From a virus: a DNA stretch of 64,000 nt. A program made the translations under genes and the position numbers. Where the stretch lies: positions 64,001-128,000 of IMG/VR virus record IMGVR_UViG_3300034283_002790, one strand, 5' to 3'. Under the pieces are notes generated by a model that worked only from the letters and a program-made list of their open reading frames with translations, was not told where the DNA came from and did not search any database. Below, in pieces: positions 6,033-56,176 of this stretch; position 1 is the first letter of the stretch; each line of letters opens with the position of its first letter.

Positions 6033-6136
6033 TTTAATTCCGATAAATAAAGTTCGTAAAGATAAACGAAATAATCTTCAGAATTTATAAATTCTTCGTG
6101 AATTGTTTGATGAATATCTTCCATATTTTTAATTAG

Positions 6137-8667: not shown

Positions 8668-8668
8668 C

Positions 8669-9397
8669 TTATAGAATATAAATTTGTTTATTTTCTACAT
8701 ATACTAATGAACCAAAAATTCTTTCCATTGCATGATTTATTGATGGTTCATGTACATAACCTGGTGGAGAGATTTCTAAAATTTTATCAATAACATCATC
8801 TGTTAAATATTTTTTCAAAATATCATTATTTATCCAAAAAATTGTCCCCCCAACAAAAAAGTGACCATCAGTATTTGTTTTTAAATTGACCCATGAAAAT
8901 ATTTCATTCATACAACTTAAATTTACCGCAAAATTATTGTTTTTTTTAGCCCCAACCATTCCACAATCGGGGTTATTTTTAAAGTTATCAATAATTCTAT
9001 CAACACGTTCTTTCGAACCAAGTACTCCATGCATCAGACCGTTAAACCAAACCTGTCCCCTATGATTTGCACTTTCTAAACCATGCCTTGACAAATGTAT
9101 TGATGGTCTGGTGGGTGATCCCAAACCTTTTTTTGTGTGAATTTTTAAAATTAAATCATATGAATCTCTTATTGTTTTATATATTTGTAAAAAACCACCC
9201 ACATCCATTCCTATATTTTGTACAAAAACAATATTGGTATTTTTATTTGTTTGTTTAAGATTATGAAGAAAACTTTGAGGATAATTTTTAGTCAATCCAA
9301 TATATAAATCATATTCATGTTCTAGATTACTCAAATATGATCTTATAGAATCTAACATATCAATATGATATAAATGGACACAGACGGCAATTTTCAT
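8669..9397 (-). CDS. rhamnan synthesis F (RgpF)-like glycosyltransferase
   Basis: IAVCVHLYH, N.GMDVGGF, LILKIHTKK, FVGGTIFW, HAMERIFG. Confidence 0.75.
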   Translation of the reverse strand: MKIAVCVHLYHIDMLDSIRSYLSNLEHEYDLYIGLTKNYPQSFLHNLKQTNKNTNIVFVQNIGMDVGGFLQIYKTIRDSYDLILKIHTKKGLGSPTRPSIHLSRHGLESANHRGQVWFNGLMHGVLGSKERVDRIIDNFKNNPDCGMVGAKKNNNFAVNLSCMNEIFSWVNLKTNTDGHFFVGGTIFWINNDILKKYLTDDVIDKILEISPPGYVHEPSINHAMERIFGSLVYVENKQIYIL

Positions 9398-10023
9398 TCT
9401 TCTGTTTTTATTTCATATTTATCTTTGTAAGTTTCCAAATCATTTATACTAATTTCTCTGAAAATTTCATTTGATTTTCTAGTTGCGGCAATTTCACCAT
9501 CTAATTCGGGGTTGAAAATAATCCCGGGATTTTTTGAATTGTTGTATTGAAAAAAATCTCCTCTGAAAATTTTAAACTCCTCTGGTACAATAAAGTAATT
9601 TTTTATGTACATAAAACAACCATATCCCTTTCTTAAAAATTCATTTACCGGTTCTATTCTTAAATCGTCAGAATTTTCCCAACTTATCCCTAAAAAATCA
9701 TAGTCGTTTTTATCTATTAAATCTAATAAATCTCCGATATTTGGGATCAAAATGTCATCATTTGCAATAATTAGTTTATATTTTGACAATGAAACTCCCT
9801 TATTCCACGCAGGATTTACAAATAAATTTTTGTGTTCAGAATAGTATATAATTTTGGACAAATCTTCGATTTTTGGTCTTGATTGGTATTCGTTATCTAT
9901 TAAAATGATTTCTTTAATTTTTTCTTCTTTTTGATAAATTGGTAACATTTTAAGTAGAAACTCACTCTTCCACATTGTAGCAATAACAATAGAGTAACCT
10001 TCTTTGTTGTCCAAATCCTTCAT
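9394..10023 (-). CDS. GT2-family glycosyltransferase
   Basis: SIVIATMW, IILIDN, NLFVNPAWNKG, IIANDDI. Confidence 0.75.
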   Translation of the reverse strand: MKDLDNKEGYSIVIATMWKSEFLLKMLPIYQKEEKIKEIILIDNEYQSRPKIEDLSKIIYYSEHKNLFVNPAWNKGVSLSKYKLIIANDDILIPNIGDLLDLIDKNDYDFLGISWENSDDLRIEPVNEFLRKGYGCFMYIKNYFIVPEEFKIFRGDFFQYNNSKNPGIIFNPELDGEIAATRKSNEIFREISINDLETYKDKYEIKTEE

Positions 10024-10045
10024 TAATTAAAATATTAAGAAATTC

Positions 10046-12586: not shown

Positions 12587-12614
12587 TTTTTTTTATTTTT
12601 TTAATAGATCTTTA

Positions 12615-14243
12615 TTATTTATCACATTCAAATGTTTGGTTAACCACTTTAGTATTACCATCCTCAAGTGTTACTGTTTCATCGTAAGTACCAGTACAAC
12701 TTGTAGTGTCAAATGCCTCATTAGAATAATTAATTCCATCGGCAGTAAGACTCGCTTGCATAGTTGCTAGTGTACATTTACAAGAATTGTTTGGTGGTGG
12801 AGTTACGTTATTTCCGCTGCATGGTTCCCCGACACCCCCAGCACTTACTGTCCATTTTTCTGAAGTACCACCTTTTCTCACAGCAATTACACACCCCGTG
12901 TTTTCATCAACCCCAAAAGACGCAACCCCATTCGTAGTGTTGTTTTTTGTGTCTTTACACCCATATTTAACGACAACAAATTTTTGCTGATCACTATTAA
13001 GGTCATTATACCCAATTATTGCCTCGCAACAATCTTCGTCCTTTGAATCTGCGGTAATAGTATCTTTTACATCTCGTTTAAACCCACCGTTGGCAAAATA
13101 TTGGTATACTTCATATCCAAGATACAAAACGGCTGCTATTACTAGTATCCACACTATAGTCTTTCTTGTGTTTCCTTTTAATGCTCCCAAAAGTCCGTTC
13201 AAAATTGCTGGGACAATTCCAAATATACCCGCAATAATCTTATGAATCACAGTTATGATTTGATCTGTTTTTTCATTTATATTCGGGGGTATTGGAATAC
13301 CACTATACAAATAACCTCCACCACTTGAGGGTTTTGGTTTTTCATTTTTTAATATAGGCACCACTAAGTCATCAAATACCTTATTGATTTCTTCATCACT
13401 CATTTCATCAACAGCATTTTTCAAACTCGTGATTTCTCCATCGGACAACTTGAGTTTCACGTCGGGATTACTGTTCATTACATTTCTTATTGATGAATAA
13501 TTTCCCTCCTGTAATTCATTTATTGTTTTTTGAATTGCCGGATCTAGTTCAAAGACATCACTACTTTTTGTTTTATAAGCATTTGCCTGGGCTTCAAGTG
13601 AATCAAATAATTCGTTTATTGCGGTTTTTTGAGTTGCGGTTAAATTTATATCACTATCTACTGCATTTCTTAAACCAGGTAATAAGTCAGCGACTGTTTC
13701 TAAATTTGCTGCCTTTTTTGCCTGATCAGGAACATCAATTTGTTTTTGAATGTTCTGTAATTTACTTTGTACCTGTCTTTGAGGTTCAGTTGATAATTCA
13801 GCAATTTGATTTTTTAGTGAAGTTACGTTGGCACCTCCTAAAATATCTCCTAAATTTTTCATAAGGGTAACACCACTTTCTCCTAACTCTTCTACAATAC
13901 TTTGTGCAACTTCTCTTTTAGTTGTACCCATCAAACCACCACTGATTATATCGTCAAATGTCAAATTATCACCAACTTTTTTACCTAGTTTAGTCATGAT
14001 TAAATCACTATTTTTTGCCGACATCAAAATTGCATTCTCGATTTCAGGAAGAACTGTTTTACCGATTAGTGCAACAGATGACCCCGGTGTGAGCCCATCC
14101 AATACACTTGGTAAACCTGATCCTAATGATTCATTTAATCTTATTTTGTTTTCTTTCAGAACTTCTGTGACACCCATTTTATGAAACATTTTTCTCATAA
14201 GAGCAAATTCCTCATTAAGTGTCATTTTTCTATTTCTTTGCAT
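12615..14243 (-). CDS. leader-class D protein, paralog family 1, with central TM segments
   Basis: N-terminal ~100 aa homologous to 32237 and 33802 ORFs; hydrophobic segments near residues 330-385. Confidence 0.65.
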   Translation of the reverse strand: MQRNRKMTLNEEFALMRKMFHKMGVTEVLKENKIRLNESLGSGLPSVLDGLTPGSSVALIGKTVLPEIENAILMSAKNSDLIMTKLGKKVGDNLTFDDIISGGLMGTTKREVAQSIVEELGESGVTLMKNLGDILGGANVTSLKNQIAELSTEPQRQVQSKLQNIQKQIDVPDQAKKAANLETVADLLPGLRNAVDSDINLTATQKTAINELFDSLEAQANAYKTKSSDVFELDPAIQKTINELQEGNYSSIRNVMNSNPDVKLKLSDGEITSLKNAVDEMSDEEINKVFDDLVVPILKNEKPKPSSGGGYLYSGIPIPPNINEKTDQIITVIHKIIAGIFGIVPAILNGLLGALKGNTRKTIVWILVIAAVLYLGYEVYQYFANGGFKRDVKDTITADSKDEDCCEAIIGYNDLNSDQQKFVVVKYGCKDTKNNTTNGVASFGVDENTGCVIAVRKGGTSEKWTVSAGGVGEPCSGNNVTPPPNNSCKCTLATMQASLTADGINYSNEAFDTTSCTGTYDETVTLEDGNTKVVNQTFECDK

Positions 14244-14303
14244 ATCTTGTTTTTTTATAAATACTATTAATTATGAAAAAATTAATTTATAGTTTAATAA
14301 TGT

Positions 14304-16769
14304 TTATTTTCCAATCCTTTTACCAAATTTATCTTTTAATTTTTGTTTTATACCTGGTTTTTTTGGTTCAGTAGTAGTTTCTGGTTGTTGTAACTGAGAA
14401 TTGTTTGAAGGATATTGTTGATTCGGATTATTACTAAATTGATTTGTTTGTTTTATTTTTCCGTAATAAACAACGTTTGGTGGAGTTCCAGCACTGTATA
14501 CATCATATTTATGGGGTTGTATACGGTAACTATTATATTTAACCTGTGTTACTTTTTCCCAATTAGTTCCGGTCCATTCTTCTGGTTTGGGCTCAACTGG
14601 TTTTACCACATTTGGATCCACAGGTCTATTCAAAGGATTTTCTATATTTGTAACAACTTCACCCTTTGCGTACTTTTTATAACCTTCTCTAACATCTGTA
14701 GATTTTGCAATACAAGGAAGACAATTAATTGATCTACCACCAATTTTCTTTTTACAAGCCTCATCATCATCTGTTAAAACATATCCTGATTCCTCACAAA
14801 TTGTTAAAATTTGATTTGCCAAATCAGGATTTTTTGACACAACATCAGTTTCCCAACATAGATCACTATTAAAATAATTTAATAAACCACTGACACCTTC
14901 CAGGTATTCAACCACTTTTTGACCTCCTTGTTGTTGTCTCTTTTTTAAATTAAGAAGGGACTGTAGAAGTACCGTTTCTTTCCATACCTTTGTTGCTTCA
15001 TCGGTAAACACACCATTTTCAAATAATTTCTTTAATGTGTCTTCACTAAATGTCATTGATCTTAATGAAAATTCATCTTGAGCATCTTTTTCTGACATTA
15101 TTTTCTTTTCCCACCCAGGACATTCACTATACTTTTTATCAAGGGCCGCTTTAGAGTTTTGTGCGTGTTGTTTTGCTGTTTGGTCATTAATTTTATCTTT
15201 ATTCTCTGGTTTAGAAGAAAAACGATCATAAATATTAATTAATACTTTTTGATAAGCAACCACCGTTCCAAGAGATTTTGTAAACGTTGATAAAAATCCT
15301 GCATTAGGTTTTGCCAATTCATCATTTATCCCATCAATTAATGATAACACTTTTGCGTATTTTTGTCTAAGTGCTTGCATCGCTAATCCTTCTTCCGTCA
15401 CATTCGATACCAAAGTTTTATTTACTTGACCATAAAATCCTGTCTCTCCGGTTTCAAACAACATCTTAAACGCTTGTTTTATTTCCGCTTGTAACTCAGG
15501 TTTTGTCATTGCTTCCATGAATTTATATAAAACCGCCCATTCTTCTGGTTGCATTGATCCTTTAAGTAATGTCATGGATAACCCCAAATCAACCCCAGAC
15601 AATGCTTGTTCTGTTAATTGTTTTCCTATTATTTCTAACATCGATTTGTTAGAATATTCCGTTCCCAAAAAGTTTTTTAATCCAGGACAATATGCCGAGA
15701 TTGCAGGCCAAGCAGCAAACGCCATTGTTATAAATGCCATTGATTCGTACTCAGGTCCCGCTTTAAGATAATTGAAAGCCAAAAACGAATTTAATCCAAT
15801 CTCACCAATCGTTTGAAAAAGCACCAATCTTAATCTTAGGTTTGCCGGACTAAGATTTGCACTTGTAAATGCCATCGCTCCCTCAGTACCTGCTACGGTT
15901 GAAAAACTTGTTAAAACTACCAATTTTTTTGCCACAAGGTAAATTGCAAGACTCGCCGCAATTTGTGCCAACATTCCTTGCCATGAACCCATAAATTTTA
16001 CAAAATTAGTTCTTGTATCAAGATCAAATGTTGATGGATCATCTTCTACAATAGGTGCTGTTTGGTTGTAAGACTCGTTAGTTTCAACATTAAAATACGC
16101 ACTTCCCAAATCAAACCTCGAACTTGTTGCTGCCATCCCTGGAACTACAATATTCCATCCTCTAGATTTTTCCATAGGTTTCAAAGGAACTTGGTCTTTT
16201 CTTATAACTTCCGGAAATAAGGATTTTTCCAAATCCACCAATTTAATTGCCAAAACAAACATCTTACCCTCACTTGTTTTGAATGCATAAGGTATTTTAT
16301 TTTTTCTTACCCATTCTAAAGTTTGCCAATCATCGGCCGGGTAATATCTTTTAACTATGGTTCCTTGTTTTCTAAGTTCCTTGTAAGGATCGTTTTGTAC
16401 GGGACCAGGAGAGTTCTGAGTAACAGTTATATCGTAATCATCCCAACTTTTTTTAACGTAAGCCTCATGCCACCCAAACTCGTCTTTGAAATGGTTGGGC
16501 TTATTTTCCAAACCAAATAATTTTCCAATATCTAAATTACCTTCAGGTAAATAAAATGCATTAAAACCTTTTTTAACATACCAAATTTTACCGTAAGTAC
16601 CAAAATCAAAACTACCTAAGGGACCTTCTTTATCAGACCCCTGCTCAAGTAAAATATTTTTATGAAATTGTTTTGGACTTAATTTAGTTTCAGTTAATAT
16701 AATGTCCAAATTCATCAACTCATGAATTTTTTTTATTTCAGATAATAAATTTATATTTTTGTTTGTCAT
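14304..16769 (-). CDS. large leader-class D protein with hydrophobic segments (possible ejection/membrane protein)
   Basis: NLLSEIKKIHELM leader; 821 aa. Confidence 0.55.
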   Translation of the reverse strand: MTNKNINLLSEIKKIHELMNLDIILTETKLSPKQFHKNILLEQGSDKEGPLGSFDFGTYGKIWYVKKGFNAFYLPEGNLDIGKLFGLENKPNHFKDEFGWHEAYVKKSWDDYDITVTQNSPGPVQNDPYKELRKQGTIVKRYYPADDWQTLEWVRKNKIPYAFKTSEGKMFVLAIKLVDLEKSLFPEVIRKDQVPLKPMEKSRGWNIVVPGMAATSSRFDLGSAYFNVETNESYNQTAPIVEDDPSTFDLDTRTNFVKFMGSWQGMLAQIAASLAIYLVAKKLVVLTSFSTVAGTEGAMAFTSANLSPANLRLRLVLFQTIGEIGLNSFLAFNYLKAGPEYESMAFITMAFAAWPAISAYCPGLKNFLGTEYSNKSMLEIIGKQLTEQALSGVDLGLSMTLLKGSMQPEEWAVLYKFMEAMTKPELQAEIKQAFKMLFETGETGFYGQVNKTLVSNVTEEGLAMQALRQKYAKVLSLIDGINDELAKPNAGFLSTFTKSLGTVVAYQKVLINIYDRFSSKPENKDKINDQTAKQHAQNSKAALDKKYSECPGWEKKIMSEKDAQDEFSLRSMTFSEDTLKKLFENGVFTDEATKVWKETVLLQSLLNLKKRQQQGGQKVVEYLEGVSGLLNYFNSDLCWETDVVSKNPDLANQILTICEESGYVLTDDDEACKKKIGGRSINCLPCIAKSTDVREGYKKYAKGEVVTNIENPLNRPVDPNVVKPVEPKPEEWTGTNWEKVTQVKYNSYRIQPHKYDVYSAGTPPNVVYYGKIKQTNQFSNNPNQQYPSNNSQLQQPETTTEPKKPGIKQKLKDKFGKRIGK

Positions 16770-16822
16770 TTTTAACTATCTTTCATTACTTTATCTAAAG
16801 TTTTCATAATTGTTCTAAATAT

Positions 16823-18988
16823 TTACTGCCCAACCATGTTGTCCATTACTGATGAACCATCATCTTTAAAACCATAAACGGTTTTAGTAAACACGCCTGA
16901 TGGGGGAACCATTAATGCCATTGGGTATGACCGAAACATTTCTAGTTCGTAACTTGTCTGAGAGGAAACATTATCGGAACATGTCACTAGTTCTCTATTT
17001 AATTTAGGGTCGCAAAAATCATTCCAGATTTCATTAGCCATCCCTAAGATCTCATCTTGACTTTTTCCAACAAATAACATATCAATAGTTCCTTGATTTG
17101 ATCCCGGTTGTTCCAAATCTTGTCCATAGGTTTTCATTATATATGGATTAATTTTTCTAATTATTTTCTTTCTGTGAGCGACTGGTAATAGTTTTCCCAA
17201 AGAATCAAAATCAGAATCATCAATTTTGCCATTTGAGTTCACATCTAATAAATCTAAAATGAATTTTGTTTTTTGATAAGTTGTTTTTTGATCTGGATTT
17301 ATTGATCCGTGAGATGCATCATCATATTCATTATCTGCTTTAGATCTATTTTTGGAATAATAATCATTAGTCCTACATGTCTCAACAGATTTGGATGTTA
17401 CCCAAACATGACTCACATTCATATCTTTACCAATTGGACTATCGGCTTTCGCTGTTTCAAACAATTTAATTCTCACCCATCTTTTAGCAACTCCTGTTGA
17501 TAATGCTGCGTCCATTAATTTTTTATTAGATAAAACTGTATTAGTGGGAATTACATATGACTCAAGTTCACATTCACTTGGTGCCATACCCGCTAAACCT
17601 GTGGCACCACCATAAAGTGTTTGCCAACCACTTTTATCCACTGTTTGTGATTGATTTAGAATACTTTGATCCGCATCTGTAAATTTTGAGGCATTTCCAC
17701 CACATGATGTGAAAACCCCATAATCTACCCCACAAGGATTCGGAAGTTCTTTAGTAGATACTTGGTCGACAACCATAAAAAATGCAGTTTGTGAATCGTT
17801 CACTTCTATTCTTTTCCACGCTGAGTTTTTGAAACCTTGTTCTTTTCCCATTTGTTTACAAGCCACTTTGTGATATAGTGGTAACCAAAGTAAAACTTCA
17901 TCTCCGGTAAATTCTCCAATTATTTTTTTACCCGTCCATTGTGCATAATTATCCCAATAGTCGAAAAATTGCCCCACATCTTTATTAACACCCGGATCTT
18001 CTCTTAAATTTACATAAATCTCCCCATTTCTTAAACATGCAGGACTTTTTACTCTATCCCCGGTGTTATCAATTACATAACCCTCTTGGTCAATATTATG
18101 TTTTTTCATCGATTCGATTTCCGAATCTTTATAGGCCAAAATTTCAAAACTATAGTTCATAACAGATTCAGTAGATGGAATTTCGGGTTTCAAAGGGTTA
18201 TTTAAATTACTAAAAGATGTTTTTTGATCAGCAGGTAAAGAGAATTTACCTAAATCAGTCTCCACATTAGGTGCTGATCTTGAAGTATATATTACATTTT
18301 CTGGACTTACAAGTTCCCAGGGTGAAACGATCTCTGGTATGGGTGTCCATTTTTTAGCATCTGTAATTTTTTTGTTTTGTTCATACCAACTTTGATAAAG
18401 TGGGTATCCTTTAGGAGTAAACCACCAATTCTCTGACCAGGTTACATCTAAGTATTCTGCACCACTTACCCCTTGTTTTTCTTTTCCTACCAGTTCATTA
18501 TAAGCCCCACGATTCATAGCAAACTGTTGATCACAACCTATCGGTATGCTCATCCAAGAATTATAGATTAAAATTAAACACTGTTGAGTTTGTTGTGATT
18601 TCCAAGTATTTTCGTCAGGTAATTTAAGACCCAATTGTCTTTTTTTCAACCACTGTATTTCAGTGTATGACTGACACTTTTCAATCTCACCAGTTTCGCC
18701 TTTTTGTTTTTTTCCTAGTAAATAATTAGTATATTGATCAAATGTCCAAACTTTAAATTTATTTTCTTCATCTGTTGTTGCCCCAGGAATTATTAGTGTT
18801 TTTCCATCCTTACAACTCATAATTTTACCAATCCCCTGATTGGGTTGATTTGCTTTATCAGTTTTTTTTGTTTCTGTATTATTAATAATCGGAATTCGTA
18901 CAGGAAGATTATTTTCAAGAAGCACTAATTTTTCCTGATTTGTTTTTTTTTCGAGTAATCTTTCCTTAATTAATTTTTTGAGTTCCAT
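16823..18988 (-). CDS. large hypothetical virion-like protein
   Basis: 721 aa; MELKKLIKERLLE leader; EF-hand-like DVNSNGKIDDSD. Confidence 0.55.
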   Translation of the reverse strand: MELKKLIKERLLEKKTNQEKLVLLENNLPVRIPIINNTETKKTDKANQPNQGIGKIMSCKDGKTLIIPGATTDEENKFKVWTFDQYTNYLLGKKQKGETGEIEKCQSYTEIQWLKKRQLGLKLPDENTWKSQQTQQCLILIYNSWMSIPIGCDQQFAMNRGAYNELVGKEKQGVSGAEYLDVTWSENWWFTPKGYPLYQSWYEQNKKITDAKKWTPIPEIVSPWELVSPENVIYTSRSAPNVETDLGKFSLPADQKTSFSNLNNPLKPEIPSTESVMNYSFEILAYKDSEIESMKKHNIDQEGYVIDNTGDRVKSPACLRNGEIYVNLREDPGVNKDVGQFFDYWDNYAQWTGKKIIGEFTGDEVLLWLPLYHKVACKQMGKEQGFKNSAWKRIEVNDSQTAFFMVVDQVSTKELPNPCGVDYGVFTSCGGNASKFTDADQSILNQSQTVDKSGWQTLYGGATGLAGMAPSECELESYVIPTNTVLSNKKLMDAALSTGVAKRWVRIKLFETAKADSPIGKDMNVSHVWVTSKSVETCRTNDYYSKNRSKADNEYDDASHGSINPDQKTTYQKTKFILDLLDVNSNGKIDDSDFDSLGKLLPVAHRKKIIRKINPYIMKTYGQDLEQPGSNQGTIDMLFVGKSQDEILGMANEIWNDFCDPKLNRELVTCSDNVSSQTSYELEMFRSYPMALMVPPSGVFTKTVYGFKDDGSSVMDNMVGQ

Positions 18989-30697: not shown

Positions 30698-31750
30698 TTA
30701 AGAAGTTTTTTTAACTCCCAAAGAATCCGGAGAATAACATTTCTCTGGATTATCAATGACTTGCTCAATCGATTGAACATAGTAATTAACTTTTTCGGGT
30801 GAAATATAAAAAATCCATGAATTCCTTAAAATTTCTCTAAATGTTTCATTGTCATAGATTTTATAAGGTACATTGATACACCCAAGACTTAAATTAAGAT
30901 AATCTGATGGTTCGTCCACTGTTTTAGATGTTCTTTTAAATGCGTTTGCAAATGCTTGAACTCTTTCTGGTTTGTTTAACATTCTATGAATTGCATTCGA
31001 CAAGAGTGTTCCATTTAAAGTCTTTAAAAAAGCAATGTCAAACTTATTTTTACCTTCAGGATATTTATCTCCACCATATAACTTAATTTTTCCTGGTTCT
31101 GTAGAAAATATTTGTGGGTAAACTGTTGTACTTCCCAAAACTGAAAAAAGATCATTAACTGTTACCGGATAATTTTTTTTATCTTCGTCTGTAATTGATT
31201 TCCAATCTTCATCGGTAACATCTTCAAATTTTTTACTTAGTTTTTTCATGGCCGTTACCCATTTGTATTGGTCAAATTGCGAAAGATTTACAAAATCTTT
31301 TATTCTTCCTGTTGGGACCAAGTCTGATTCTTTTCCGGTAATAATTGGTATAGGATTTTTTTGATTGGGATCTAAGTAAGGGGTAACATCATTAAGATTT
31401 TGGTCAAAAGAATATATTGTGTGATAATTTGGATCCACTACTGTCATATATTTTTTATCTTTGAACCCGGGTCTAATATATATTAATCCTGCTTCACATG
31501 CGGTTCTATCTGGGATACCTTTATCAACTAATGTTTTAGCAACCTCTTCTATCTTAGTATTGATTATCTTGAATGTTTCTTCTTCTGTTGATGCTGAATA
31601 AGCGTTCAAAATATCTTGATAATCAACTACTAGTGTTTTTGATTCAGTATTGAATTCAGTACAAAGTTTAGTTGTATCTTCCTCATCAAGACGATATAAC
31701 CCCCTGATTGATGATTTTTCTTCTTCACTTATAATAAATCTTTTTCCCAT
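30698..31750 (-). CDS. leader-class C protein with L,D-transpeptidase (YkuD)-like domain
   Basis: PIITGKE, NAIHR and LSLGCINV (catalytic His/Cys pattern). Confidence 0.6.
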   Translation of the reverse strand: MGKRFIISEEEKSSIRGLYRLDEEDTTKLCTEFNTESKTLVVDYQDILNAYSASTEEETFKIINTKIEEVAKTLVDKGIPDRTACEAGLIYIRPGFKDKKYMTVVDPNYHTIYSFDQNLNDVTPYLDPNQKNPIPIITGKESDLVPTGRIKDFVNLSQFDQYKWVTAMKKLSKKFEDVTDEDWKSITDEDKKNYPVTVNDLFSVLGSTTVYPQIFSTEPGKIKLYGGDKYPEGKNKFDIAFLKTLNGTLLSNAIHRMLNKPERVQAFANAFKRTSKTVDEPSDYLNLSLGCINVPYKIYDNETFREILRNSWIFYISPEKVNYYVQSIEQVIDNPEKCYSPDSLGVKKTS

Positions 31751-31822
31751 TTATAATAAATATGATTAAATAAAAAAAACCCTAACCAAAAGGATAGGGT
31801 TTGATTAAAATAGGTCCAAAAA

Positions 31823-32170
31823 TTATTTGTTTCTCAAATAATATGCAACCCACGAAAAAACACCAATCATAATTGGCATCAATATACCTGATCCACCCAT
31901 GTAAGATAGGTGAATAACAGCGGCTGCTGACATGATGGACGTGATTAAAATCGAACCGTACAATGTAGTTCGAGAATAAATCAACAATCCAACACTCAGT
32001 AATTCTGCAATACCAACAAGAGCCAAATAAGGAAGTAAATTAATGGATGTAAAATTACGAACCATTTCTTCGCTTCCGATTACTTTGTTGAAACCAGAAA
32101 AAATTAGCATAAACGAAACAAGTGCGGTTACCAACCACCCTGTGTTTCTAAGTGTTAAATAATTACTCAT
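31823..32170 (-). CDS. DoxX-family membrane protein
   Basis: F.SG..K......F......G..E...GL.....G......M..A...H pattern. Confidence 0.75.
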   Translation of the reverse strand: MSNYLTLRNTGWLVTALVSFMLIFSGFNKVIGSEEMVRNFTSINLLPYLALVGIAELLSVGLLIYSRTTLYGSILITSIMSAAAVIHLSYMGGSGILMPIMIGVFSWVAYYLRNK

Positions 32171-32236
32171 ACATCAAATATAGGAAATTCAAATTAATAA
32201 GTCAAATATCGATCAATAAGAATAAATTTTAATTTT

Positions 32237-33805
32237 TTAAAATTGAACTGGTTTTCCTGGATTACCAGTTAAACCTTGATCATCAATAAATTTGTCTTTG
32301 AGATATTGTCTGAAATCTGGAATACCATAATTTTCAAAACCCCCTCTTGATATGTATTTAAACTCTCCAGTGTCTAATGCTTGTTTTATTAATGAATTAT
32401 AATCATTTGAGTTTTTTGCATTGGTAATTTTAGACCAGTCAATAAGACTATCATCACCAAGAACATTCGATATGAAATTCGTATTTTTTTGTGGTGGTGT
32501 TTGAATTGAAACCGGTGGTAAATCAAAAATGTCAGGTACATCATTTGGTTTATAGGGACCTCCTTCGTTTTTAGAATACATGTTTGAGTAATCGGACGGA
32601 AGTGGTTTTTTTGTTATTGGATCTATTCCTGGTGATACAGTTGAGATCCCAGTTTTATAATCAATGGGTCCCAATAATTCATATCTATAATGAATTGCGG
32701 GGGTCAAGGCTTTATCCCCTGAAATGGTACCACCCTTTTTATATCCAGATATGGCAGTTTGTATATCTTCGAACATTTTTTTTTGTAAATTACTATTTAT
32801 AACATCTACTGGAATATAAATTGTTACCCCCTGTTTTCCATATTGATATCCACCTGGTTTAAATGCGTCTAATGAGAGATGTCCAGTTCCCCCAACCTTA
32901 CCATGTGCTCCATATTTTTCAATTACAGGTGTAAGTGCATCAGTCAAATAAACCAAATCTTTTATGTCTTCACCAAAGACATGAAATTTCCATCCACTAG
33001 AAACCCCAGATCCAGTACGGATCGTTTTCCAACCAAAAGAGTTGTGAATTTTTTCTAATTCTTCTTTTGTGTATTTGTTTAAATATGATTGTGGATCTGT
33101 TGAATCTATATTTGGTAGGTTTTGAGAAATAGGTGAAGATTGTCCTTGAAGTTTTAAAGTGTTTAACTGGAGTTGGGTGTTGTAACAACTTTCTTTAATG
33201 AAATCTTTAAGGTCCGGGGATATAAAACTTTCTTCAACTTTTTTCAAAATAATTGGTAGTTGTATTTCCAAAATGTCAACTGCTCCTTGTGTCATTCGAC
33301 CCTGACTCAAATCAAAATAAGCACTATTAAAAAATTTTTTTACACTATCATGTAATTGCTTATCTATCTTTTCAAGACCTACAATTTTTCTTTCTAATAT
33401 TTTAAAATTTTTATTACCAACTATATCCGCAACATCTTGTAATATCGAATCTGCCTGACTTTTTCCGACAATCGATAATAAATTACTTGCAATTTCACTT
33501 TTGGTACTTCCACCAGTTATTGTTTTAAGATCGTCAAAGGTAAGATTATCACCGACATTTTTTCCAAGTTTTTGAGTTATAAGTTTTGAATTTTTTGCGG
33601 TGTTTAAAATTGAAGTTTCAATCTGACTTGCAATTTCTGACCCTAAAGTTTTAACCATACCTGGAGTTGCACCATCCAAAATTGATAATGCGGTAGGTCC
33701 GGGACCTGGTGTCAACGATTCTTTTATAACTCCAAATCCCATTCCCATAACATTAAAAATCTGGGATATTTTTTCTAATTCTTCGTTAAGTGTTCTTTTT
33801 TTCAC
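32237..33805 (-). CDS. paralog family 1 protein with OspF/LanKC-N-like phosphothreonine lyase domain
   Basis: Shared N-terminal domain; internal GWKFHV...HGKVG...GKQGVTIYIP. Confidence 0.6.
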   Translation of the reverse strand: MKKRTLNEELEKISQIFNVMGMGFGVIKESLTPGPGPTALSILDGATPGMVKTLGSEIASQIETSILNTAKNSKLITQKLGKNVGDNLTFDDLKTITGGSTKSEIASNLLSIVGKSQADSILQDVADIVGNKNFKILERKIVGLEKIDKQLHDSVKKFFNSAYFDLSQGRMTQGAVDILEIQLPIILKKVEESFISPDLKDFIKESCYNTQLQLNTLKLQGQSSPISQNLPNIDSTDPQSYLNKYTKEELEKIHNSFGWKTIRTGSGVSSGWKFHVFGEDIKDLVYLTDALTPVIEKYGAHGKVGGTGHLSLDAFKPGGYQYGKQGVTIYIPVDVINSNLQKKMFEDIQTAISGYKKGGTISGDKALTPAIHYRYELLGPIDYKTGISTVSPGIDPITKKPLPSDYSNMYSKNEGGPYKPNDVPDIFDLPPVSIQTPPQKNTNFISNVLGDDSLIDWSKITNAKNSNDYNSLIKQALDTGEFKYISRGGFENYGIPDFRQYLKDKFIDDQGLTGNPGKPVQF

Positions 33806-35256
33806 AAAAGTTTTTTTATTTTATTTATTTCCCTGTTCAATGATTCATTCATACCAGGAAGTGTATTGATATTATAAAATCCTTTATTTTTCAAATCTTC
33901 CATATCTTTCTTTTGTTTGTCCATCCATGTTTTATAATTATAATCACCCTCTTTGGGCATATCGTACCACTTATCCCATTTGTCTAGTTGTTTTTGTATT
34001 TCTTGAGAATTTTGAAGTTGATTATAATTTAACTGATTTTTTGTGTTTGTTGTCGGTGGCTCTATAGAAAAATCCCAACTAAAGGGACTTGACCATCGTG
34101 GGTCAAAATTTGCCAAATCACTTGGAGGAAGTGACGTATTAATCCTTAAAGTATTATCTTTATATTTTTTAATAATGAAATCTCGAAAATTATCAGTACC
34201 AAACTTTTCGAATCCTGTTATTGGAAAAAGTTCGGCAGCATCTCTGATTGTCGCCTCCTTTTCAATCGGGGACATATCTAAACCTATGCTTTTTAAAAGT
34301 TGAAGTCCGGCACCAATCGATCTGATTATTGTTGTTTCCAACCAATTTTTCAACCCCCACTTTTCAATTGATTCCGCATCTTGAATAATAAGTCTTTGTA
34401 TCCATTCCATAGGGAATGCATCTTCCTTAAATTTAATGTTATTGAAATCAATTAATTCTGGATCGAAACTATTATTCGAAAATGTCGTAGAATAAGTTTT
34501 TAGATTTACTGGGGTATAACTTGGTTTTTCGTGAAAAGTCATGTTGGGCCAGTCGTCAATACTAGGCTCAACATTTTTTACTTGAGGTGTTGAAGAAGGT
34601 GAAAGTTCTTTTGAAAATTTATGAGTATTAATTTGTGTTTGAAAACTATCTAAGACTCTCTCTAAATCTACTTTTAGAGTTTGATCCATTTCGATGGTTT
34701 TTAACTGTTCTTTTAATTTTGGAATTGTAGCCTCCATTACCTCACAAGCAGTTTCAAAAGTCGCCTCATCATCTATACTTTTACTAAATTGTGTCTGTAA
34801 GTCTTGTAAACTTGTTTTCAATGCTTGTTGATTAGTTTTATCAAGTTGTTTAACATAACTTCCTAAAGCAGTTAAATTTTTTGGATTAATTTTATTTAAC
34901 AAAAGATCATCCAAAACTTTTGAACCTTCCGATCCTAGTTCTTTTAAAACCATTTCTGCGGCTGAAGATTTTGTTGTTTGACCATAAAGTGTTTTGATAT
35001 CATCAAAACTTACATTGTCACCAATTTTTTTTCCCATTTTATTCAAAATTAATTCTGAATTTTTTACGGAGGTTAAAATTGAATTTTCAATCTGAGTTGC
35101 AAGTTCTGTACCCAAAGTTTTTACAAGTCCTGTACTTGATGCATCTAACGCACCCAAAATTAATTTATCGCCTGGTCCCACACTTTCATTCAACAAATTT
35201 AATCCAAAACAATTTTTAATTTTTTGAATTTCTTTAATTAGTTTTTTATTATTCAT
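33802..35256 (-). CDS. paralog family 1 protein
   Basis: Start reassigned to MNNKKLIKE (TATTTAT upstream); shared N-terminal domain. Confidence 0.65.
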   Translation of the reverse strand: MNNKKLIKEIQKIKNCFGLNLLNESVGPGDKLILGALDASSTGLVKTLGTELATQIENSILTSVKNSELILNKMGKKIGDNVSFDDIKTLYGQTTKSSAAEMVLKELGSEGSKVLDDLLLNKINPKNLTALGSYVKQLDKTNQQALKTSLQDLQTQFSKSIDDEATFETACEVMEATIPKLKEQLKTIEMDQTLKVDLERVLDSFQTQINTHKFSKELSPSSTPQVKNVEPSIDDWPNMTFHEKPSYTPVNLKTYSTTFSNNSFDPELIDFNNIKFKEDAFPMEWIQRLIIQDAESIEKWGLKNWLETTIIRSIGAGLQLLKSIGLDMSPIEKEATIRDAAELFPITGFEKFGTDNFRDFIIKKYKDNTLRINTSLPPSDLANFDPRWSSPFSWDFSIEPPTTNTKNQLNYNQLQNSQEIQKQLDKWDKWYDMPKEGDYNYKTWMDKQKKDMEDLKNKGFYNINTLPGMNESLNREINKIKKLL

Positions 35257-35320
35257 GATAATAAATATTCTGAAATTATTGTTTTTTTTCAATTCATATA
35301 TTTATATTAAAAAACTTAAT

Positions 35321-35662
35321 ATGAAAAAAATTGTAAGATTAACAGAAGCAGATCTAGTTCGTATTGTTAAACGAGTAATTAAAGAAAATCAAAACGATAT
35401 TCCAACAGAAATTATTGGTTGTGCAACTGAAGTATTATCATTAAATAATCTTGATCCAATTCCTACTTGTAAGGAATTAGGTATGGGGGTTATTACTTCT
35501 AAAAAAATCCCAACTGATTTAGTGAAATTAATGGCTTGTGGTACGGAATTATCTAAATTAAATAAAACACCACAAGATGGAATTAAATTCATGAATTGTG
35601 TTTTGCAAAAAATTAGTACATCACCTCCGGTTATGAATGAAAGACGATCTAGAAGATGGTAA
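35321..35662 (+). CDS. leader-class A hypothetical
   Basis: MKKIVRLTEADLVRIVKRVIKE; TATTTAT at 35299-35305. Confidence 0.65.
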   Translation: MKKIVRLTEADLVRIVKRVIKENQNDIPTEIIGCATEVLSLNNLDPIPTCKELGMGVITSKKIPTDLVKLMACGTELSKLNKTPQDGIKFMNCVLQKISTSPPVMNERRSRRW

Positions 35663-35956
35663 TTATTGGAAAGACACAGGTAGGTTCTTGATGTCGTTCA
35701 ATGAAATATTTTTTAATTGAAGTGTTCCATGAGATAATTGTGAGAACATCCCAATCTGTTGAAGATACTGAAAGTAATAAAAAAGAAAATCAGGTAAAAC
35801 TCTGTCTAAATATTCTTCACGAACTTTTACCCCAATGTTTTCTTCATTGAAAGATCTAGTTGGGGTTCCCACTGTTTTCTCCGAACCTTTTCTAATTAAC
35901 CAAAAGTCGGCATTTTCAAAATTGAGTTTAAATTCACAAATTGTTCCTAGTGTCAT
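35663..35956 (-). CDS. small protein resembling a type I R-M specificity (HsdS) TRD fragment
   Basis: M.LG.ICE start and PDFLFYYF..........G....NIS..DIKNLP. Confidence 0.45.
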   Translation of the reverse strand: MTLGTICEFKLNFENADFWLIRKGSEKTVGTPTRSFNEENIGVKVREEYLDRVLPDFLFYYFQYLQQIGMFSQLSHGTLQLKNISLNDIKNLPVSFQ

Positions 35957-36636
35957 ATTTTTATATTTAATTCTAATTTATTCCAATCAACCCCAAAGGT
36001 TGTTAACTCCGAATAATATTCATCTTCTTTAAACTCAATCCAACCCGTTCCTCCAGGATCATCTGCCCATCTTGAACCAAACTCATAAAAAACAAATTTT
36101 GTTACAAGGTCTTCGATGTCATCTGTAAGTTTATTCCACCATCTTTGATTTCTCAAACTTGGGTCAGGAACTTCTAAATAATAACGGTCACAATAAATAT
36201 AACCCCCCTCACCATCAAAAAACACCACAAAGTTATCAATATATTCTTGATTTAAAAATTTTTTAACAATTTTATGATCATCACCTTTAATATTTGATTT
36301 ACCAACGTCATATTTTTCATACTCCGATTCATAAAGAACTTTTTCAAGTATGATTTGATTTAAAAATCTTAACGGTGATTCTGATTTATTAATTTTTAAT
36401 ATTATGTCAGTTCTATCATTTGATTTATTCTCTAGTTTTTTGAGTATATCTGGTAAATAGTCTATGACTATTTCATTTAAAAAATTTCTAACTATGTCTA
36501 TAACTGGAAAAGTTTTTTTTCTATTAAGGTCGAATAATTCCACATCTTCCAAATTATAACCAAAATACATCATGTCAACAATAATTACATCTTCACCAAA
36601 AGAAGATAAATAGGAAAAAAGTGCCTTTCTATTCAC
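35953..36636 (-). CDS. hypothetical protein
   Basis: 227-aa ORF in a coupled run. Confidence 0.55.
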   Translation of the reverse strand: MNRKALFSYLSSFGEDVIIVDMMYFGYNLEDVELFDLNRKKTFPVIDIVRNFLNEIVIDYLPDILKKLENKSNDRTDIILKINKSESPLRFLNQIILEKVLYESEYEKYDVGKSNIKGDDHKIVKKFLNQEYIDNFVVFFDGEGGYIYCDRYYLEVPDPSLRNQRWWNKLTDDIEDLVTKFVFYEFGSRWADDPGGTGWIEFKEDEYYSELTTFGVDWNKLELNIKI

Positions 36637-36642
36637 AACTTA

Positions 36643-37755
36643 TTATATTAATCGCCGAAGTTTATTTTGAATTAAAATATATCTTTCGAATAGTTCAGGT
36701 TCAAACAAACTTAAATTTAATTCCTCTATATTATTTGCACTTCGCACTTCTGTACTTCCTTGGCTGTATGGAGAATCAGACCCTTGAGGATTTGGTTTAT
36801 AAACATCAAACACAAGATATGGCCTTTCAAAATTTAACTTTTTAAAACGAACCTCTATTTTTTTGTTCGGGATAGAAATCCAATACCCAAAACCACCCAT
36901 TTCATTTACTTTATTGTAAAGTTCCAAATAATTTTCAAAATCTAAATTTTCATCTAATTTAGATTCTGCGTCCTCTAAGATTTTTTCTAAAGACCATTTA
37001 AATGTACTATTAATAGAAGATATATCTAAATCTTCTATTTGACAATTTACGTTATACTTAAGTTCATCCCAAAACCCAATATCTTTATCAGAATCTAGTT
37101 TTTCGACCCAATATGTCAAAACTTGATCAACATCTTCATTTTCTTTTTGACTCATTCGGTACCATAATAATAAGTTTGCTACTGTTGTACTATATAAATA
37201 ACCATAGTGTTCCTCTTCGATTCCAATCTTTTTGTAAGGATCTTTACACTCGCTAATCATTATATCTTTTACACGTTGTGTAATGCAATCATCCATTTCC
37301 GATCCAAAACTTAAATACATATCTTCAACTTTATCACCATATGTATTGTATAAAAACTCAGAAACTTCAGCATGATCACTAAGACGTAAAGTTGGGTTTG
37401 TTATTTTCAATATCTCAGATAACAAATTAAGATTTTCCGGATCAAAATAGTTTATAATATACCCATCTAACCATTCCTCTTTCCAGGTATATTCATCTGT
37501 TTGGTAATAGTTATAATATGGTGAAAATGCATCTTCATATTCTCGAATATCAGAATCATCCAAACCTAAGGTTTTCAAAAATTTTTCAGTTGAGTCAAAT
37601 CTAATATAAACCTTTGAAAATTTTGGATTTGTTTTATTAAACTCTAGTCTATAAATATAATCTGAGGGATAATTGTAATATGGATCATACCCATTACTCA
37701 CATTTAATAAAAAATTATAGGTATCTCCGTAGTTATTGTTCTCTTCTTCTACCAT
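36643..37755 (-). CDS. acidic hypothetical protein
   Basis: 370-aa ORF. Confidence 0.6.
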   Translation of the reverse strand: MVEEENNNYGDTYNFLLNVSNGYDPYYNYPSDYIYRLEFNKTNPKFSKVYIRFDSTEKFLKTLGLDDSDIREYEDAFSPYYNYYQTDEYTWKEEWLDGYIINYFDPENLNLLSEILKITNPTLRLSDHAEVSEFLYNTYGDKVEDMYLSFGSEMDDCITQRVKDIMISECKDPYKKIGIEEEHYGYLYSTTVANLLLWYRMSQKENEDVDQVLTYWVEKLDSDKDIGFWDELKYNVNCQIEDLDISSINSTFKWSLEKILEDAESKLDENLDFENYLELYNKVNEMGGFGYWISIPNKKIEVRFKKLNFERPYLVFDVYKPNPQGSDSPYSQGSTEVRSANNIEELNLSLFEPELFERYILIQNKLRRLI

Positions 37756-53624: not shown

Positions 53625-53655
53625 AAAAAACCCCACCTGTTAAAGATGGGGTTTT
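53625..53655 (-). terminator. intrinsic terminator downstream of the CRISPR array
   Basis: AAAACCCCA/TGGGGTTTT stem with U-tail on minus strand. Confidence 0.75.
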
Positions 53656-53666
53656 AATATAATAAA

Positions 53667-54084
53667 TTCAAATACAGATCATATACAACTTTCAGAAAAT
53701 TTAAATGTAGATAGATTTGTTGTGATTACCCTACAAATAAAGACCATACACAACTCAAAACAAACGATTGTGCGACCTTAATTTGTTGTGATTACCCTTC
53801 AAATAAAGATCATACACAACTTTAGGTTGTTATACAGCACTTTCCATCTCGTTGTGATTACCCTTCAAATAAAGATCATACACAACTGTTTTCTATTAAT
53901 CGGCAAACCGTTGAGCGTTGTGATTACCCTTCAAATAAAGATCATACACAACTTGAAAAAGGAAGCGCTAACCCAAATCCCCGTTGTGATTACCCTTCAA
54001 ATAAAGATCATACACAACGCGATAAGTTGTCTTCTACACTCTTCCTCCGTTGTGATTACCCTTCAAATAAAGATCACACACAAC
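53667..54084 (-). CRISPR. CRISPR array: 6 full 36-nt repeats, five 30-nt spacers, plus a 29-nt spacer and a partial terminal repeat; type VI-B-like repeat
   Basis: Plus-strand GTTGTGATTACCCTTCAAATAAAGATCATACACAAC at 53719 (2 mismatches), 53785, 53851, 53917, 53983, 54049 (1 mismatch); partial copy 53667-53689 (21/23). Confidence 0.97.
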
Positions 54085-54194
54085 TGTGTATTTTGGAAAC
54101 ATAATAAATGAAAGGCTCTTGTTGTCATTATAAACCCACAAATTGAGTTTTGACCACAATTAAATTGGATGTCACACCACCCAGTTTTTGTTTC

Positions 54195-55442
54195 CTAATT
54201 TTCTAAATTTTCAAAGAACATTTTCTTACCTAAGTCCCGAATGTTTAAAGCCGCATTGTAATCACGATCAATTTCGCTTTTGCAGTTTTTACATTCCCAA
54301 ACCCGTTGAGATAAAAGTAGATTTTCATTCACCGTACCGCAATTATTACATTTCTTGCTTGATGGAAAAAATCTATCCACTTTAATTGTGTGTTTCCCGC
54401 TGGAGACACTTTTATAAATAATCATTTCACGTAACATCCCAAGACCAGCGTCCAAAATATTTCGATTTAAGTTTGATTTTTGTTTAACGTTGGTACCAGG
54501 ATTTTCAACGGTACCTTTATTTGATTTCGTCATTTCAACAAGATCCAAATCTTCCATACAAATCAAATCATATTGATCGACCAGTCTTTTGGATACATTG
54601 TGATTATAATTTTTTCTACAGTTTGATATTTTTTCTTCTAAAACATGAACTTTTTTATTCAACTTTTTCCAGTTGTTAGAGTACTTTACACATTTGTCCC
54701 TATTACTTATCAATTTTGACAAATGATTTAAATGTTGGTTCAGGTATTTTGGATTTTTAATAACTTCATTTTCTGATGTAACAATCAAAGATTTTACACC
54801 CGCATCGATACCAACCACAGACTTGACTTCCTTTTTTGAAACATCGTTCTTATATTCTACCAAAATTGACACATAGTACTTTCCATGTTTTTTGGAAATC
54901 GTATATTTTTTTGGAATTCCAATAATTGGTCTATGATATTGGACTTTGATATTTCCAGTAATTTTTGGTAAAGTTAACTTACCATCTTCTTTTATTCCGT
55001 GTTTTTGTATATTAGTATTAATTAATCGTGTTGTAAAACTTTGTTTTTGGTCATTCTTTTTTGTAAAATCCGGTGGTGTGGGACGTTTCATATCGGTCTT
55101 CGGATTGTTTTTAATGACTTGTTTATAGATTTTTGTATTATCAAAAAAATCTGACCAAGCCTTACTTAAATGTTCCATTTCATACATATAAATCTGTGAA
55201 TCGTGATCATTTAAAAAGGGTGCCGATTTTCTATAATTTGTTATATGTTTATTTAATCCAAAATGTGATAAATTTGGTTTTCCACCCAGAGAATATATTT
55301 GTCGATCAAGATCGATGGTTAGGTTTCGAACATACCTTGCCGCTTGTATTGCACCCTCGATTTGTTTAATCTGGGTTTTATTGGGGTATATTCGATACTT
55401 AAACCCCTTATTTAATACTCCAACCTTTTTTTCTCTTTTCAT
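54195..55442 (-). CDS. tnpB: TnpB-family RNA-guided RuvC nuclease (IS605 OrfB-like), CRISPR-adjacent
   Basis: KYRIYPNKTQ N-terminus, RuvC-I VGIDAG, RuvC-II MEDL, Zn finger CNNC/CKNC, RuvC-III DRDYNAALNI. Confidence 0.93.
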   Translation of the reverse strand: MKREKKVGVLNKGFKYRIYPNKTQIKQIEGAIQAARYVRNLTIDLDRQIYSLGGKPNLSHFGLNKHITNYRKSAPFLNDHDSQIYMYEMEHLSKAWSDFFDNTKIYKQVIKNNPKTDMKRPTPPDFTKKNDQKQSFTTRLINTNIQKHGIKEDGKLTLPKITGNIKVQYHRPIIGIPKKYTISKKHGKYYVSILVEYKNDVSKKEVKSVVGIDAGVKSLIVTSENEVIKNPKYLNQHLNHLSKLISNRDKCVKYSNNWKKLNKKVHVLEEKISNCRKNYNHNVSKRLVDQYDLICMEDLDLVEMTKSNKGTVENPGTNVKQKSNLNRNILDAGLGMLREMIIYKSVSSGKHTIKVDRFFPSSKKCNNCGTVNENLLLSQRVWECKNCKSEIDRDYNAALNIRDLGKKMFFENLEN

Positions 55443-55446
55443 AGTA

Positions 55447-55478
55447 CAAATTTAGAATTAATTTTTTCAATAGTCAAA
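55447..55478 (-). promoter_or_regulatory. Bacteroidota housekeeping-sigma promoter of tnpB
   Basis: TTTG (55478-55475), 20 nt, TAAATTTG (55454-55447); matches the TTTG-N19-21-TAnnTTTG consensus. Confidence 0.75.
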
Positions 55479-55537: not shown

Positions 55538-56176
55538 CTAGGATTTCCATGTTAAAGAATTTTTTTTGACGTTTCTATTAATGTGAGAACATAGGGGCTG
55601 AAAATTTGTATAATGGTTAAGTTTAAAAACATCTTCCTTTGTGACGGCTGATGACAAAGGTATAATATGATCCAGGTCCCAACCAAAATTCAATTTTCCA
55701 TTATAAAGACCATAATTATCCCAGGTCATCCAAAGTTCAAATTGGGATTCAATATGTGACTTAAACTCACCATGATCACACCCAAGAATTTCAATTGTCT
55801 TGAGTTGTTTCGATGACTTAAATTTGGACAATGATTTTCGAATTTTGGATCTAACTCTTTCCTTCAATTTAAAAATGGGATCAATCAATTTTCTTTGTTT
55901 GATGTAATCTTTGTGTTTTGCCGATAAAACCTTTCGATTATCTTTTCTATATTTTTTTCGTTGATTAGATATTGAATCTTTATTTAATACTTGATATTCT
56001 TTTATTTTTTCAAGTTCTCGAGTTTTATTTTTTGCGTAATATTTTTTTCTTTCTGCTGATCTACACAATTTACATTGTGGGGAAAAGTTATCAGATTGTC
56101 GTTTATTTTTATTAAACTCTGTGAGAACTTTTTCTTCACCACATTTTGTGCAAACCTTTTTTTCCATCTTTTTCAA
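55538..56176 (-). CDS. HNH endonuclease (homing-type) with N-terminal Zn finger
   Basis: CTKC/CKLC; WDLDHIIPL...NHYTNFQPLC...N..K. Confidence 0.8.
   Translation of the reverse strand: MKKMEKKVCTKCGEEKVLTEFNKNKRQSDNFSPQCKLCRSAERKKYYAKNKTRELEKIKEYQVLNKDSISNQRKKYRKDNRKVLSAKHKDYIKQRKLIDPIFKLKERVRSKIRKSLSKFKSSKQLKTIEILGCDHGEFKSHIESQFELWMTWDNYGLYNGKLNFGWDLDHIIPLSSAVTKEDVFKLNHYTNFQPLCSHINRNVKKNSLTWKS

Follow-up and report, generated by a model that had tools for sequence, protein, structure and literature searches.

A phage-borne TnpB joined to a scaffold RNA and a CRISPR array: a candidate intermediate between transposon nucleases and type V systems

The 64,000-nucleotide stretch of DNA analysed here (the window) comprises bases 64001-128000 of the linear, 187,384-bp IMG/VR record IMGVR_UViG_3300034283_002790, the completeness of which is estimated at 64%. 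Among the genes of the record is one for a large terminase (Terminase_6N, 47 bits); the phage is a tailed one from lake water, and we infer its host to be among the Bacteroidota. On the minus strand of the window, a promoter, a tnpB gene, a linker, a CRISPR array, a decayed repeat and a terminator follow one another in a compact unit (Table 1), and this anatomy, originally predicted from the letters alone, holds base for base. The start ATG of tnpB lies 5 nt past the -7 box of the promoter, whose layout (TTTG, 20 nt, TAAATTTG) fits what we take to be the Bacteroidota -33/-7 consensus. The promoter block is conserved; homology to the related locus L008 begins there (alignment A1) and stops past the terminator, showing that the unit acts as a cassette. 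The terminator is kept, with compensatory changes, in L008 and in another relative, L036, and a terminator-like hairpin at 55521-55509 closes the gene upstream, so that the unit is bracketed. In relatives, the genes flanking the unit have homologues at other places in the window's phage genome. The whole 187-kb record holds one tnpB and one array, and the lack of tnpA, cas1 and cas13 remarked on for the window extends to the record, in which no Cas13b, Cas1 or Y1 TnpA was found; nor were recognisable insertion sequence (IS) ends found at the tnpB gene. The unit is probably a form, found in nature, that stands midway from transposon nucleases to type V CRISPR systems, and such forms were described only recently (TranC/V-U).

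Table 1. Features of the tnpB-array unit in the window, and the second scaffold-array copies of two relatives
Feature	Location	Strand	Basis or detail
Bacteroidota-type promoter: TTTG 55478-55475, 20 nt, TAAATTTG 55454-55447	55447-55478	minus	sequence read
tnpB, 415 aa: helix-turn-helix (HTH), RuvC, zinc ribbon	54195-55442	minus	open reading frame (ORF), Pfam, NCBIfam, alignment
Linker, 110 nt	54085-54194	minus	between tnpB and repeat R1
Predicted scaffold RNA (like an omega-RNA or trans-activating CRISPR RNA (tracrRNA)), four elements	54085-54197	minus	folds, conservation, covariance model
Scaffold closing stem	54195-54189 with 54101-54095	minus	fold
Scaffold hairpin P1	54183-54166	minus	fold; loop GUGUGA 54177-54172
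Scaffold hairpin P2, variable inner stem	54159-54156 with 54122-54119	minus	fold
Scaffold conserved single strand, AAGAGCCUUUCA	within 54085-54197	minus	
CRISPR array, six 36-nt repeats, 30-nt spacers	53719-54084	minus	R1 54084-54049, R6 53754-53719
Last spacer S6 (53718-53689) and decayed terminal repeat (53688-53666)	53666-53718	minus	
Intrinsic terminator closing the unit	53625-53655	minus	12 pairs at 53655-53627, then T run
Second scaffold, half repeat and three or four spacers	L044:1930-2300, L045:2580-2960		marine phages, two arrays flank one tnpB

The protein was originally said to look like an ordinary TnpB, and Pfam and NCBIfam both call it a standard member of that family. Its HTH, OrfB_IS605 RuvC and zinc-ribbon regions score above curated cut-offs (Pfam: OrfB_IS605 2e-21, Cas12f1-like_TNB 2e-20, HTH_OrfB_IS605 1e-6; NCBIfam guided_TnpB: 275 bits, cut-off 100), and it carries the D-E-D triad and the CxxC...CxxC pattern, with D213, E297 and D394 of RuvC and C365/C368/C384/C387 of the zinc finger invariant in 21 clade members (alignment A2). 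Among solved structures its closest relatives are 9j09 (1e-41), cited as a Cas12n in a preprint (bioRxiv 10.64898/2026.03.27.714800), and then ISDra2 TnpB (1e-32). The top PADLOC model is Cas12u4 (248 bits), and the protein stays far below the cut-offs of the c2c8 and Cas12f2 models. An AlphaFold model built from a 21-row alignment was poor, with a predicted local distance difference test score (pLDDT) of 62.5 and values below 50 in the RuvC region. Unlike a mobile IS, the gene is present once in 187 kb with no Y1 TnpA found, and its close relatives show no IS-like spread, all of them residing in scaffold-array cassettes. Its 3' flank holds a scaffold and a multi-spacer array with turnover, not the single fixed guide of an omega-RNA. 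The best explanation is that the effector, although still like a transposon TnpB in size and domains, no longer lives as part of a transposon and has become fixed to a CRISPR array.

The array consists of six copies of a 36-nt repeat (GTTGTGTATGATC...GGGTAATCACAAC) spaced at 66 nt, of which four are identical, one carries a single change and one carries two, followed by a seventh copy that retains just its 5' 23 nt; a 36-mer repeated six-fold at fixed spacing is far beyond chance. The spacers are 30 nt long and all different. Variation of spacers between related phages had been predicted, and it is seen even between TnpBs that are 94% identical: locus L028, a member of the same phage lineage with such a TnpB and the same flanking genes, has none of its four readable spacers in common with the window. 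Loci L039 and L040 have one distal spacer in common and differ in all scaffold-proximal spacers, and this pattern is the signature of polarised acquisition at the scaffold-proximal end. Because the phage record yielded no gene for adaptation, host Cas1-Cas2 acting in trans would be the simplest source of new spacers. A precedent exists in Flavobacterium columnare, in which a type VI-B array is served in trans by type II-C machinery (PMC8092290).

Relatives of the unit were gathered by searching with the protein, by looking up contigs and by scanning IMG/VR and JGI metagenomes. About 20 loci encode a TnpB 40-94% identical to that of the window, and all of these having downstream DNA show the same order of tnpB, homologous linker and array, with a period of about 66 nt and spacers of 29-30 nt. 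They form nine sub-lineages (window/L028, L008/L036, L030, L038, L039-43, L033-35, L042, L119 and L044-46), sourced from freshwater and marine samples. At or below 36% identity, a downstream array was seen at none of 66 IMG/VR loci whose flank measures 400 nt or more and at none of 31 metagenome loci, some of which have short flanks. In a quick maximum-likelihood tree, the array-linked proteins make up one clade (27 rows; Shimodaira-Hasegawa-like approximate likelihood-ratio support (SH-aLRT) 100; stem length 0.64), and the state 'array' needs a single change on the TnpB tree. Thus, the profile searches and phylogeny suggested with the original prediction return TnpB profiles and a monophyletic array-linked group, and the conserved linkage that it anticipated is found across all nine sub-lineages, with variable spacers in most lineages. 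Two situations named beforehand as speaking against a joint unit were not encountered: no TnpB without an array was found among relatives at least 40% identical, and no related module was seen to have an array without tnpB. An effector conserved beside a downstream array across its clade, with polarised spacer turnover, is what is found in type V systems of the V-U/TranC kind. The description of the system as nascent was an overstatement, as the clade is established and diversified in freshwater and marine phages. Separately, three outgroup TnpB loci from IMG/VR (L125, L134 and L137; 33-34% identity) have direct repeats with a period of 71-76 nt directly upstream of the gene.

Between the window and L008, the linker is about 95% identical and the coding sequence (CDS) about 80%, so that constraint is stronger on the linker than on the CDS. 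Hairpins P1 and P2 and the conserved single strand of the predicted scaffold are kept across 12 lineages, and the closing stem, which begins in the stop codon, is present in several. All 14 named pairs are paired in all 12 lineages, five of them having changed on both sides, and slid controls gave none. A covariance model of the scaffold scores 127 bits at the window; neither about 140 outgroup TnpB loci nor the neighbourhoods of Cas13b arrays gave it a homologue, so that the model does not trace the scaffold to a particular omega-RNA, and a search of Rfam matched no family. Sigma-70-like hexamers are no commoner in the linker than in shuffled sequences. In L044 and L045, a second copy of scaffold and array lies upstream of tnpB, with its own promoter-like motif (TAnnTTTG) and no tnpB CDS; the scaffold is therefore independent of the tnpB CDS and travels with arrays. 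Moreover, in L044, L045, L046 and L119 the scaffold is fused to a 3' half repeat and a spacer, with full repeats following, and this fused form measures about 100-113 nt.

The scaffold and the repeats also appear to be matched to one another. The P1 loop sequence UGUGA is complementary to UCACA at positions -7 to -3 of the repeat, giving a potential five-pair helix that is paired in every lineage. The exception in sequence is L119, with GUGUAA as its loop and UUACAAC at the end of every repeat, in place of the GUGUGA and UCACAAC seen in the other lineages; this compensation, G-C to A-U, occurred as a single event. This joint change would be hard to explain unless the scaffold and the repeat end interact. 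In the ISDra2 omega-RNA, positions -5 to -3 pair with -103 to -105 in a pseudoknot common to all Cas12 guides (PMC10097598).

Co-transcription of tnpB and the array, as originally proposed, agrees with data from RNA libraries. The stretch is present in 14 lake-water DNA runs, and six lake metatranscriptome runs contain 22-41% of its sampled words. Contigs identical to the window were recovered from four of these RNA runs, which belong to four studies; they cover the 3' half of tnpB, the whole linker and R1-S1-R2-S2-R3, bridging the stop codon (54104-54425) and the junction of linker and R1 (53989-54192 and 54068-54346). The 5' third of tnpB and the distal array are left uncovered by these contigs, which cannot show absence.

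The repeat had been judged to be of type VI-B appearance. This stands in that its family adjoins genuine cas13b genes, but the family is not exclusive to type VI-B. Its 3' 19-mer also occurs in arrays of Bergeyella zoohelcum, Sphingobacterium hungaricum, Chryseobacterium, Capnocytophaga and several metagenome-assembled genomes (MAGs). At the four arrays that were checked (Bergeyella, Sphingobacterium, Chryseobacterium and a Bacteroidales MAG), the adjoining ORFs score 794-853 bits on the Cas13b model, which has matches in L014, L015, L016, L025 and L196. The closest bacterial repeat, 30/36 identical to that of the window, is Cas13b-linked and belongs to the Bacteroidia genome G154. The window thus has the repeat family and the 30-nt spacers of type VI-B arrays, and no cas13b was found in its record or in four related or array-bearing viral records. 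As a side observation, the Cas13b array of Bergeyella zoohelcum (L014) alternates two repeat classes, GTTGGAACTGCTCTC... and CTCATGAATGCAAAGC..., that have only the 3' 19 nt in common.

Other viral records carry the same kind of array. The complete jumbo phage G405 (IMGVR_UViG_3300015615_000196; 362,603 bp with direct terminal repeats) encodes a 501-aa protein like Cas12f/V-U3 (PADLOC Cas12u3, 278 bits), followed by about 250 nt of non-coding DNA and a long array with 36-nt repeats (GTTGTTGATCTATTGAATTTGAAAGGTAGTCACAAC) and 30-nt spacers that runs past the contig end; gene and array are at L214:2046-4104 and L208:1-840. These repeats belong to the same Cas13b-like family, and no Cas13b match was found in the G405 record; a Cas12f-like gene on this repeat family means that the family is not diagnostic of Cas13b. 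Repeats of Cas12f1 presumably end in a similar way (...GAAGGAATGCAAC); a text search did not confirm this, and we do not use it as evidence. On the viral contig L207 (G404, IMGVR_UViG_3300019477_000133), a related array with 30-nt spacers and repeats ending in ...GCAAGGTAATCACAAC (L207:1988-3720) lies directly downstream of a 421-aa protein that gave no Pfam or PADLOC match and no profile similarity to TnpB, and whose Atlas neighbours are viral hypothetical proteins; this could be a solitary viral array or one with an unknown effector. The repeat family therefore looks like a shared array type adopted by several effectors. Of the two origins that have been considered for such systems (PMC10691335), one is the capture of an array that already existed, and this would be the more economical history for the present unit.

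We propose that the unit is probably a self-contained, phage-borne, TnpB-based type V-like system in which the array spacers serve as guides and host machinery performs adaptation. According to this model, a single promoter drives tnpB, a structured scaffold RNA of about 110 nt and the array, as the anatomy shows and the RNA-library contigs support. The scaffold would be the equivalent of an omega-RNA or tracrRNA, and its P1 loop GUGUGA may pair with the repeat 3' end UCACA before each spacer, which would rebuild the guide-pseudoknot-stem architecture of the ISDra2 omega-RNA. TnpB would then use the repeat 3' end plus spacer as its guide and cut matching DNA next to a transposon-adjacent motif (TAM). 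Spacer turnover and its polarity are observed, and new spacers may enter at the scaffold-proximal end through host Cas1-Cas2 in trans, which is possible because repeats of this family are ones that Bacteroidota hosts already service for Cas13b arrays. The likely role would be to compete with other phages or mobile elements, or to attack host DNA.

Candidate targets of the spacers were sought in several collections. Local BLAST of about 70 spacers against the whole phage record and all fetched loci returned self-matches only, comparison of the array with INPHARED phages gave chance-level matches only (E at least 0.4), and four exact scans of IMG/VR yielded either nothing or the arrays themselves. 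A scan of 401 Bacteroidia genomes produced one borderline match, 25/26 nt of S6 in genome G242 (E 1.3e-4 per genome), at L198:1501-1526 (G242:C54:20611-20636) inside a gene for a 209-aa secreted protein with a motif that, in our own reading, resembles the FISUMP domain. A CRISPR RNA (crRNA) from S6 would be antisense to the matched G242 mRNA. Across 401 genomes the statistics of this match are borderline, and it is insufficient for determining a TAM or testing the strand. Two further matches were taken as chance: one of 26/27 nt in G037 spans a spacer-repeat junction, and a scaffold-like match in G123 falls inside what appears, from the reading frame, to be an arginyl-tRNA synthetase gene.

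Several points weigh against the proposed type V-like system. No protospacer was found in these searches, and hence neither a TAM nor a strand test is available. The RNA data are assembled contigs that carry no ends, strand or level, and may include DNA carry-over. The putative pseudoknot rests on one compensatory event, the other lineages being invariant there. The model does not account for how spacer 1 turns over where it lies beside a half repeat. With the record only 64% complete, a cas gene may lie elsewhere in the phage genome. Finally, the Cas13b-family repeats and the stand-alone array of L207 leave room for use of the array by a host effector.

This last point leads to the strongest rival, in which the viral array feeds host Cas13b, directed at transcripts of rival phages or acting as a decoy, and TnpB with its scaffold uses the first spacer at most, or owes its linkage with the array to another reason. 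Viral mini-arrays that exploit host effectors are established (PMC11656645), and the related array of L207 is solitary. The window array has 36-nt repeats with GTTG...CAAC ends, 30-nt spacers and the exact 19-mer found beside cas13b, its closest relative there being the 30/36 match; the sole candidate target, the 25/26-nt match in G242, would make the crRNA antisense to mRNA. The orientation of the array is also that in which arrays are transcribed beside cas13b. TnpB and Cas12 read a handle and then a guide, and Cas13b reads a spacer and then a repeat, with which the observed order of cas13b followed by array agrees. In every lineage of the tnpB-linked arrays, an intact repeat 3' end precedes each spacer. 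In L033-35, a lone spacer follows a full repeat and is succeeded only by a 17-nt 5' stub, so that it lacks a full, usable downstream repeat and can serve as repeat-then-spacer but not as the spacer-then-repeat of Cas13b; in the lineage of the window, the repeat after the last spacer is without its 3' half. These three points favour the TnpB polarity, and the conserved half repeat before spacer 1 is needless for Cas13b. Supply to host Cas13b leaves unexplained this half repeat and the covariation of loop and repeat end, as well as the inseparability of tnpB, scaffold and array in nine sub-lineages and the joint duplication of scaffold and array. Moreover, no host with identical repeats was found, and the Cas12f-like gene of the jumbo phage deprives the repeat family of its diagnostic value. 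We therefore regard this explanation as unlikely.

The two uses may also be combined. One phage array could be read in two polarities, with TnpB using the repeat 3' end plus spacer to cut DNA, host Cas13b using the spacer plus the following repeat to cut RNA, and host adaptation restocking the array; the phage would then have made its type V system from a captured type VI-B array, and repeats of this family would be a common currency of Cas13b, Cas12f-like and TnpB effectors in Bacteroidota and their phages. We consider this dual reading doubtful, somewhat more so than supply to Cas13b alone.

Less probable still is that TnpB acts as a guided binder or regulator, like TldR or Cas12m, and represses phage or host transcription instead of cutting DNA. 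Domesticated TnpBs are known as RNA-guided transcription factors (bioRxiv 10.1101/2023.11.30.569447), and the one fixed spacer across many L033-35 contigs would suit a regulatory guide. However, TldR and Cas12m have lost catalysis, whereas 21/21 members of this clade retain both the D-E-D residues of RuvC and the zinc finger without change, and the rapid spacer turnover of most lineages fits immunity or competition and not fixed regulation. An ordinary IS200/IS605 tnpB-only element inserted by chance beside an older array, with no joint function, is very improbable: the protein does score as a plain TnpB, and transposon insertion near an array is an accepted origin of Cas12 (PMC10691335) and may well be the history of this unit, but the gene is single-copy with no TnpA found and no recognisable IS ends, the linkage is kept down to 40% protein identity while spacers turn over, and the linker is more constrained than the CDS, so that the comparative data already contradict it.

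Transitions from TnpB to Cas12 are established, and 40 further V-U branches have been reported with arrays downstream of the effector (PMC10691335). TranC systems formalise the intermediate state between transposon and CRISPR system. TranC clade 9 averages 414 aa, and its tested member, from a Caudoviricetes genome with five 38-bp repeats, was active in a protospacer-adjacent motif (PAM) screen from its native operon (CauTranC9), its native spacers matching phages (bioRxiv 10.64898/2026.03.27.714800). The present unit resembles clade 9 in its TnpB-sized effector (415 aa) with no added REC or WED domains, its residence in a tailed-phage genome, its short downstream array (about five repeats in clade 9) and its lack of cas1 and cas2. 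It differs in that its repeats are 36 nt long, not 38, and in that it has a conserved structured scaffold whereas no tracrRNA was identified there; for clade 9, nothing is said of repeats related to those of Cas13b arrays. The clade of the window may thus be TranC clade 9 or a neighbour of it, a comparison made by description (size, phage origin and repeat length). Similarly, V-U effectors such as Cas12n (V-U4) derive from TnpB and are steadily linked to a downstream array with no adaptation genes (PMC10691335), but Cas12n has about 540 aa, whereas the window protein is smaller and scores higher as a plain TnpB.

Compared with ISDra2, the domain set, size and catalytic residues of the protein are alike, the scaffold is located 3' of the gene, its fused form in L044 and L119 (about 100-113 nt) approaches the 116 nt of ISDra2, and a pseudoknot is proposed between a 5' element and the nucleotides directly upstream of the guide. 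In contrast to ISDra2, no TnpA or transposon ends were found and the gene is single-copy, the guides come from an array with turnover instead of a fixed transposon flank, and the scaffold does not need the 3' end of the CDS. Type VI-B arrays of Bacteroidota share with the unit the repeat family, the repeat and spacer lengths, the layout of effector followed by array and the lack of adaptation genes of their own, with adaptation in trans shown in Flavobacterium columnare (PMC8092290); the difference is that no cas13b was found here and the effector next to the array belongs to the TnpB family of DNA nucleases. The viral mini-arrays (PMC11656645) are likewise short, of host type and devoid of adaptation genes, but they hold 1-2 spacers, whereas the present array has 5-7 repeats, is tied to its own adjacent effector and scaffold, and carries repeats identical to those of no host found (30/36 at best) and spacers for which the searches gave no targets. 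We have not found descriptions of the kinship of such repeats with Cas13b arrays, of a scaffold with loop-repeat covariation, or of natural fused and duplicated scaffold-array forms.

Within this single clade, nature offers a series of forms that leads from the TnpB of transposons to type V CRISPR: a scaffold to which a half repeat and one guide are fused, this form with full repeats added, a scaffold apart from a full array, and a scaffold-array copy placed by duplication at a distance from the gene. The clade also indicates that arrays of the family serviced for Cas13b can support a type V-like system, and it bears on whether Cas12 arrays arose by duplication of omega-RNA or by capture of existing arrays. 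With an effector of 383-415 aa and a scaffold of about 100 nt, the system is also a candidate compact editor.

The surroundings of the cassette show further features. An endonuclease VII/HNH-like gene (phrog_1035) lies upstream of tnpB in the window (55538-56176, minus strand), and genes of this type occur downstream of the array in L039, L041 (L041:4757-5257) and L043, while in L040 the array abuts a 5'-truncated copy (L040:2424-2554); its product may move the cassette as a partner of the homing-endonuclease kind. Paralogous small genes surround the cassette in L036 and L008 (L036:1890-2000, 2440-2500 and 4650-4760), each with the same terminator and a conserved start region (MKYIITE...) in front of it, which suggests a cassette-shuffling region. 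Elsewhere in the window, nine large ORFs of 350-846 aa (6247-18988 and 30698-37755) have no PHROG family at E 1e-5, and the phage group is therefore poorly represented in reference sets. A tRNA-Arg(TCT) gene lies at 6136-6209.

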